Both the position numbers and the translations under genes were made by a program. This document shows positions 19,503 through 21,063 of a DNA stretch of 64,000 nt, in pieces; position 1 is the first letter of the stretch, and each line of letters begins with the position of its first letter. This DNA comes from Escherichia coli (GTDB taxonomy: Bacteria > Pseudomonadota > Gammaproteobacteria > Enterobacterales > Enterobacteriaceae). The stretch lies in NCBI RefSeq assembly GCF_002854065.1, contig NZ_CP024147.1; one strand, given 5' to 3'. The notes under the pieces are model-generated. The model did not search any database. It worked only from the letters and a program-made list of their open reading frames with translations, and was not told where the DNA came from.

Positions 19503-21063
19503 ATGAGCAAAATATCAGGTTGGAATTTTTCTCAAAACATTACATCAGCCGACAATTGTAAACAAAAAAATGAAGACTTAGATACCTGGTATGTGGGAAT
19601 GAATGATTTTGCCCGAATTGCCGGAGGGCAGAATAGCAGAAGCAATATTCTTTCTCCCAGAGCATTTTTGGAGTTTTTGGCTAAGATATTTACCCTGGGT
19701 TATGTGGATTTTAGCAAACGCTCCAACGAAGCGGGTAGAAATATGATGGCTCATATTAAGTCCTCATCTTATATCAAAAATAATGATGGTAGTGAGATAA
19801 TGAAGTTTGTTATGAATAATCCTGAAGGGGAGCGAGCGGATTTATCTAAGGTGGAAATAGAAATTACACTTGCCTCAGCTTTTAATAATGGGATTCGTGA
19901 AGGACATACAGTCATTATATTTACACAACCTGATGGTTCGACTAATCGTTATGAAGGGAAGTCCTTTGAAAGAAAAGATGAGAGTTCATTACACCTGATT
20001 ACTAACAAGATTCTGGCGTGTTACCAACGCGAAGCTAACAAGGAAATAGCTCGTCTATTAAATATTCCGCAGGAGTTAAATAATTCTCAGGACTTGAATA
20101 ACTCGCAGGTGAGTTGTAAAGATTCAGTTGATTCTACGATTACGGATTTATTAGAAAAACCATTGAATAATGCATTATTAGCAATAAGGAAAGAACATCT
20201 GCTATTAATGCCTTATGTATGTAATGAATCGATTTCATACTTGCTTGGTGAAAAAGGGATACTGAAAGAAATAGATGACCTTAACGCAGTAAATAATTAT
20301 CTTCTTAATAATAAGAAAGCTACTGACAATGAAATTAATGACATCAAAGTTAACCTGTCTCATATTCTTATTGATTCCTTAGATGATGCAAAAGTTAACC
20401 TTACACCGGTCATCGATTCGATTCTGGAGATTTTTTTAAAATTCCCATATATTAATGATGTAAGAATACTGGATTGGTGTTTTAATAAAAGAATGCAATA
20501 TTTTGGTGATTCTGAAAAGATAAAGTATGCATGCTCCGTGATAAATCATATTGATTTTAGCCGCGATCAATCTAAAGATTTTAGCTGCGATTAATCTAAA
20601 ATTAAAATAGCTGAGACCTTATTTTTCAATCTCGATAAAGAACACTATAAAAATAGCCGTAAATTACAGGAATTGATTTGGGATAAGTTGGTTGCATATG
20701 TCAATGATTTTAACTTAAGCAATCAAGAAAAATCACGCTTAATACTAAGGTTATTTGATGATGTTAAGTTGCTATTTAATGAAGTGCCTGTCAGCATTTT
20801 AGTAAATGATATTTTTTTTGAAGGATTTTTTCATGAAGCAACCTGATTTTGCTAAGTGGTATTTCTATCAATTACTTAAAGATTATGAGGGCGAACAGCT
20901 GTATCTTAATGAGTTAGGATATGTTTATGGTAATGAAGAAAAAACAAATGAAATTGTAAAAAACAATCCGGGTTATGTCGTTAAGATTTTTGAAGAAAAG
21001 ATGGTTAATGAATTAAAAATTAGAACAAGAATGATGAAAATCCTCCGGAAGATTTACGTATAG
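19503..21063 (+). pseudogene. yjgL: yjgL-like gene, apparently disrupted (premature stop within a 24-bp tandem near-duplication, then a frameshift near a T8 run)
   Basis: ORF 19503-20594 ends at TAA; the same frame stays open for 84 more codons; a third segment continues in another frame from about 20806. Low-complexity Asn/Lys-rich protein. Confidence 0.5.

Follow-up and report, generated by a model that had tools for sequence, protein, structure and literature searches.

The yjgL gene of Escherichia coli, a low-GC chromosomal gene, is the ortholog of Shigella icaR (gem3) (Silue & Campbell-Valois 2022, PMC9241512). Here we describe the copy of yjgL that lies in a 64,000-nt stretch of E. coli DNA (contig NZ_CP024147.1 of assembly GCF_002854065.1), which as a whole is called the window below. 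The yjgL pseudogene covers 19503-21092 on the plus strand, from its ATG through the native TGA, and in the list of open reading frames (ORFs) it is flanked by tabA/yjgK (18919-19380) on one side and by argI (21164-22168, minus strand) and then rraB on the other. In K-12, yjgL (b4253, 604 aa) is located at the same position between tabA and argI; these neighbours are annotated identically in EC931, K-12, SE11 and others, and nucleotide and protein alignments show the window gene to be collinear with K-12 YjgL across its entire length. An earlier note on this DNA, made from the letters and the ORF list only, had called the gene yjgL-like, a call that synteny, the position of b4253 and homology all bear out. 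It let the gene run from 19503 to 21063, of which the start stands but the end does not, as the native TGA is found at 21090-21092. Two other genomes, EC931 and CUWW06, are identical to the window throughout yjgL, and in both the Prokaryotic Genome Annotation Pipeline (PGAP) labels exactly the counterpart of 19503-21092 as a pseudogene (‘DNA-binding protein; frameshifted; internal stop’). The features of the locus are listed here, including results from Tandem Repeats Finder (TRF).

19503-21092, plus strand: yjgL pseudogene, placed by synteny, PGAP annotation of identical DNA and the position of K-12 b4253
19428-19455, plus strand: putative overlapping MxiE boxes upstream of yjgL, proposed from the literature; weak motif match
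20058-20109, plus strand: 18-bp tandem repeat encoding an LNNSQx hexapeptide array (TRF period 18, 2.9 copies)
20553-20600, plus strand: 24-bp tandem duplication, eight codons each, DFSRDQSK/DFSCD*SK (TRF score 82)
20592-20594, plus strand: lesion 1, nonsense codon TAA (Q364*), from C to T at 20592 (CAA to TAA) in the second 24-bp copy
20812-20819, plus strand: lesion 2, T8 homopolymer, one base longer (+1) than the T7 that intact alleles show in the alignment
20806-21063, plus strand: +1-frame ORF of 85 aa in the ORF list, the displaced native frame of the YjgL C-terminal region
21038-21050, plus strand: lesion 3, junction of a 64-bp deletion, the one remaining copy of the 13-bp direct repeat AAATCCTCCGGAA
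21090-21092, plus strand: native stop TGA, in frame 0, (21092-19503+1) mod 3 = 0

Genome comparisons and counts were made with 5,426 complete E. coli genomes. Intact alleles of 604 aa (K-12), 584 aa (strain 140), 550 aa (BL21, CFSAN061771 and CREC-544) and 531 aa (PK5086) run uninterrupted across the sites of the nonsense codon, the frameshift and the deletion. Set against the intact 550-aa alleles, the window gene shows Q364*, the change from T7 to T8 and the 64-bp deletion, all of them reproduced in EC931 and CUWW06, and this qualifies it as a bacterial pseudogene. We consider it highly probable that yjgL of the window is a genuine, multiply disabled pseudogene, the ortholog of Shigella icaR, which is decaying as a silent gene under weak selection. 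Genuine pseudogenisation was one of three options in the earlier note and is the one that is upheld, as intact alleles read through and PGAP flags identical DNA. The break had been described there as a nonsense codon plus a frameshift; both are real, but the description was incomplete, since the third lesion, the 64-bp deletion, had been missed.

The nonsense codon lies within two adjacent 24-bp units, GATTTTAGCCGCGATCAATCTAAA at 20553-20576 and GATTTTAGCTGCGATTAATCTAAA at 20577-20600, which are identical at 22 of 24 positions, far beyond chance (TRF on 20553-20600: period 24, 2.0 copies, 91% matches, score 82). One of the two differences is the C to T change at 20592, and unit 1 has CAA at the corresponding place, just as had been noticed at the outset. 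TAA 20592-20594 closes an ORF of 363 aa that begins at 19503. Past this codon, frame 0 remains open for 83 sense codons until TGA 20844-20846, so that the earlier count of 84 open codons is right if the stop is included. Every other allele examined has C at 20592, according to the alignments and the variant table. The exact 86-mer containing TAA occurs in only 2 of the 5,426 genomes, EC931 from China and CUWW06 from Thailand, so the nonsense mutation arose recently and is confined to a small clone. At this frequency the architecture is not conserved across deep lineages, as would be expected if the 363-aa product or the fragments downstream had a selected function, and Q364* could be used to mark the clone.

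The 24-bp duplication itself has another history. The intact 550-aa alleles of BL21, CFSAN061771 and CREC-544 contain it, both copies having CAA, and about 2,150 genomes carry the duplicated segment, while it is absent from K-12 and PK5086, each of which has a 30-bp gap there. A 6-bp tandem duplication, TAAAAT/TAAAAT (20597-20608), directly follows and overlaps the 24-bp duplication, and the 30 bp (10 codons) missing in K-12 and PK5086 look like the 24-bp unit together with this apparent 6-bp duplication. Since the 24-bp duplication is present in intact alleles, it is an old in-frame length polymorphism and not the cause of inactivation. Thus, the duplication does not belong to the break, of which the earlier note had made it a part; the nonsense mutation merely happens to fall inside it.

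The second lesion is the extra T. Intact BL21, CFSAN061771, CREC-544 and PK5086 have T7, and the native frame reads ATT TTT TTG AAG (I-F-L-K), whereas the window reads ATT TTT TTT GAA and meets a stop nine codons on (TGA 20844-20846). The native reading continues in the +1-frame ORF, whose translation, MKQPDFAKWYFYQLLK..., corresponds to residues of intact alleles, in keeping with the earlier observation that the gene resumes in another frame from about 20806, beside the T8 run. The stop of this ORF at 21063 is an out-of-frame stop made by the deletion. In EC24 and E2863, PGAP annotates part of it as a separate 76-aa hypothetical protein.

The length of the T tract varies in the population. 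The exact T8 86-mer is present in 998 genomes, and with identical flanks T7 is found in 238, T9 in 50 and T6 in 2, so the suspicion that the tract is prone to slippage was well founded. T9 occurs on at least three different backbones (O104:H4, BE2-5 and 214-4), and T6 disables an otherwise intact CREC-544-like allele in SX4, both of which point to recurrent slippage. The tract is a slippage-prone mutational hotspot in a decaying gene. It cannot work as a switch in the window, because TAA lies upstream of it and the deletion downstream.

The third lesion removed 64 bp, a figure taken from the full variant table. Undeleted alleles (ABWA45, BL21, CFSAN061771 and CREC-544) have two copies of AAATCCTCCGGAA around 51 bp of unique sequence; ABWA45 has in addition a separate 6-bp loss of its own. 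We counted the deletion by a 37-mer query across the junction, which is present in 1,314 genomes. As they are found in 998 and 1,314 genomes, respectively, the frameshift and the deletion are old, lineage-wide features. The changes of +1 and -64 sum to -63, so that the native stop at 21090-21092 regains frame 0, and this is why the PGAP span reaches 21092; the last 14 codons (DLRIAIEKYGWNN*) agree with the intact C-terminus. Functional compensation of +1 by -64 was considered and rejected, as frame 0 ends at TGA 20844-20846, before the deletion. In strain H7, the segment that is deleted in the window (21037/21038) contains an 8-bp ATATGAAT microsatellite with about 5 extra units, a second slippage-prone tract.

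By parsimony we infer an order for the three lesions. Starting from an intact 550-codon allele, the 64 bp would have been lost first, by slippage or illegitimate recombination between the 13-bp direct repeats, leaving a 519-codon ORF like that of CFSAN061772. A +1 slippage from T7 to T8 would then have reduced the ORF to 447 codons, as in EC24 and E2863, and last a C to T transition would have converted CAA to TAA at codon 364, inside the much older 24-bp duplication. Relaxed selection on a silent gene would be the cause of this succession. The sequence of deletion, T8 and TAA is the most parsimonious one because CFSAN061772 (T7, deletion, CAA) differs from the window just by C at 20592 and by one T fewer; EC24 and E2863 (T8, deletion, CAA) are 2-3 substitutions away from the window.

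Several other strains have lesions of their own in yjgL. In strain W, a G to A change at 20477 creates a stop at codon 325, in addition to T8 and the 64-bp deletion. The truncation in W has been ascribed to an insertion sequence (IS) element (PMC9241512); no IS element was found within yjgL of W, and what we observe instead is the nonsense codon 325, T8 and the deletion. LR-25 has an additional A at 20289, 2014C-3061 a 5-bp deletion at 20413, and several strains have insertions of IS3, IS903B or IS1. ABWA45 has the 5-bp deletion in common with 2014C-3061, in the region homologous to 20413-20431, and 18 bp further on it alone has lost 1 bp, which restores the frame; this is apparently a compensated frameshift in an allele that is truncated anyway by T8.

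The gene is also unusually polymorphic, since identity across genomes spans 86% to 100% (Megablast; a match to the locus, K-12 yjgL included, was obtained in 4,822 of the 5,426 genomes). GC content is 28-37% within yjgL and 47-56% in the flanks, and this AT-rich gene was probably acquired horizontally. Between allele classes, the ratio of nonsynonymous to synonymous divergence (dN/dS) is 0.41-0.66, with dS of 0.15-0.32, and the constraint on yjgL is therefore relaxed, not fully neutral. Coding divergence sets in sharply at codon 6, concerns 19518-21092 and is mosaic: the first 460 bp hold 60 of the 98 differences that separate the window gene from CFSAN061771. Between the window (MSKISGWNFSQNITS...) and K-12 (MSKISDLNYSQHITL...), the N-terminus differs from residue 6 on. 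Much of the length variation of YjgL is explained by the copy number of the 18-bp repeat, the hexapeptide units numbering about 15 in K-12, about 11 in strain 140, about 1 in PK5086 and 2.9 in the window.

It is known that icaR is activated by MxiE/IpgC through a MxiE box and that its product is secreted by the type III apparatus (PMC9241512). The K-12 ortholog of icaR responded to MxiE and IpgC in experiment, and in E. coli without pINV yjgL is silent, being transcribed only when MxiE and IpgC are provided (PMC9241512). In the published view, E. coli keeps icaR/yjgL as a silent “fossil” gene, a relic of secretion-system cargo, and icaR is a pseudogene in S. flexneri 2457T (PMC9769918). The data from the window, namely low GC, relaxed dN/dS and many independent inactivations, agree with this view of a fossil gene. 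Searching for MxiE boxes with up to 3 mismatches allowed gave no hit. Upstream of yjgL, the sites that come closest to GTATCGTTTTTTTAnAG are 19428-19444, with 5 mismatches and with G6, T12 and A16 kept, and 19439-19455, with 6 mismatches; neither is significant alone, the 5-mismatch level being reached 50 times in the window. The 122 bp upstream of yjgL, lying within 19381-19530, are about 99% identical to K-12, and this promoter and 5′ untranslated region shows about 99% identity across all allele classes.

Searches of the intact alleles against Pfam, NCBIfam and the sequences of the PDB returned no family above threshold. A SopA-like central domain (PF13981) scored 17.8 in the BL21 allele and 24.6 in K-12, below its Pfam gathering threshold of 27 bits, and the same sub-threshold match was noted previously (PMC9241512). 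No DNA-binding model of Pfam or NCBIfam matched the intact alleles, and the PDB sequence search gave no homolog of solved structure, so the PGAP name ‘DNA-binding protein’ is without support from any domain model tested. The yjgL and argI genes converge, and the 71 bp that separate them contain an inverted repeat, GCCGGGA...TCCCGGC (21119-21148), which is probably a terminator common to both. A simple scan for promoter and terminator consensus sequences did not call it and gave nothing above shuffled expectation.

Some observations weigh against a simple history of decay. All four combinations of T7 or T8 with or without the deletion occur on a backbone within 7 substitutions of the window in 1,661 bp: T7 without the deletion in 2014C-3061 (where a separate 5-bp deletion is present), T7 together with the deletion in CFSAN061772 and S10 (519-codon ORF), T8 without the deletion in ABWA45, and T8 with the deletion in the window, EC24, E2863, W and LR-25. 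The order of events proposed above is thus not unique, and this violation of the four-gamete rule requires recurrent mutation, in the form of slippage, or intragenic recombination. Furthermore, a dN/dS below 1 means that strict neutrality has not prevailed through the whole history of the gene, and intact alleles of 531-604 aa are retained in many genomes. The promoter is almost invariant, which could mean that under certain conditions some function is left; it is not obvious how neutral decay by itself would leave such a promoter beside hyper-divergent alleles.

An alternative that takes up some of these points has the T tract acting as a phase-variable (contingency) switch, or as a place where slippage is programmed in transcription or on the ribosome, so that yjgL would be conditionally expressed and not dead. 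Ribosomes and RNA polymerase are able to slip on runs of U8 or T8, and Shigella mxiE itself uses transcriptional slippage. The polymorphism from T6 to T9 on identical flanks and on several backbones speaks for this alternative, as does the existence of all four combinations of tract and deletion. However, TAA 20592 is 220 nt upstream of the tract, where slippage cannot rescue the protein, and the 64-bp deletion has also removed the native C-terminal frame; a reversion of T8 to T7 would leave both in place, so that we find no alternation between ON and OFF states. T8 is moreover stably inherited in about 1,000 genomes and not scattered among close relatives, and with 7-9 T's the run is short compared with homopolymers that switch efficiently. 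Nothing that would stimulate programmed frameshifting is present, frame 0 reading ATT TTT TTT GAA with a stop 9 codons on. In the absence of MxiE/IpgC, yjgL is reportedly silent (PMC9241512). We therefore regard a functional switch as improbable. A wider form of the idea, equally doubtful in our estimate, is that the T6-T9 tract, perhaps together with the repeat-flanked 64-bp segment and the 18-bp variable-number tandem repeat, makes yjgL/icaR a hypermutable contingency gene whose C-terminal region is switched, or rescued by slippage, under a MxiE-like activator. If this were true, it would be diversifying selection on a secreted protein, and not neutral decay, that produced such deeply divergent alleles beside an invariant promoter.

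Sequencing or assembly errors, which the earlier note allowed for, could be suspected behind the stop codon, the extra T or both, because homopolymer length errors are common in long-read assemblies and the related SCU-308 record has several single-A insertions that resemble such errors. On the other hand, TAA is a substitution and not a homopolymer indel, and it is the same in two other complete assemblies, from China and Thailand, while the T8 86-mer and the deletion junction recur in the 998 and 1,314 genomes given above. Error is a very improbable explanation, and it is not tenable for any of the three lesions.

That the gene naturally ends at 20594, with ORFs 20673-20846 and 20806-21063 as separate, unrelated small genes, deserves hardly any credence and is effectively refuted by the alignments: PGAP does give the +1-frame remnant an entry of its own in EC24, E2863 and ABWA45, as a ‘hypothetical protein’ of 76 aa, and an AAGGA motif stands 7 nt upstream of ATG 20833, but both ORFs align collinearly and with near identity to residues 365-519 of intact alleles, which pass 20594 and thereby answer the comparison with reference yjgL that the earlier note had proposed, ATG 20833 is an internal Met of the intact protein, and only 2 of 5,426 genomes end at 20594.

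We thus favor a genuine, multiply disabled pseudogene, and its main consequence is one of annotation, in that 19503-21092 should be described as one pseudogene with three lesions and not be split into a 363-aa gene and two small ORFs behind it. This is ordinary gene decay of a kind that is already annotated, in a gene that has already been described as a fossil, and it is already known in kind.

Among known systems, the closest are K-12 yjgL and Shigella icaR, which share with the window gene the locus between tabA and argI, collinearity over the full gene, a nearly identical promoter and 5′ untranslated region, low GC, and length variation and truncation among strains. K-12 yjgL differs from the window in that it is intact at 604 aa and comes from a divergent allele class (dS about 0.24); it contains about 15 of the hexapeptide units but no 24-bp duplication, and it reads TTTTTAT where the window has the T run. 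In Shigella, IS elements have cut icaR short at the 3′-end, whereas the window allele has a nonsense codon, a T slip and a 64-bp deletion. The PGAP yjgL pseudogenes of W, EC931, CUWW06, SE11, LR-25 and O104:H4, flagged ‘frameshifted’ or ‘internal stop’, are of the allele class of the window; among these, W (nonsense 325 and no Q364*), LR-25 (+A) and O104:H4 (T9) represent independent secondary hits on a common background of T8/T9 and the deletion. The contingency loci of Haemophilus, Neisseria and Campylobacter resemble the window gene in that they, too, have a homopolymer within the coding sequence, and its different lengths in the population alter the reading frame. Unlike these loci, the tract of the window has no ON state that could be restored, is short, is inherited stably throughout a lineage, and lies in a gene that is reportedly silent.
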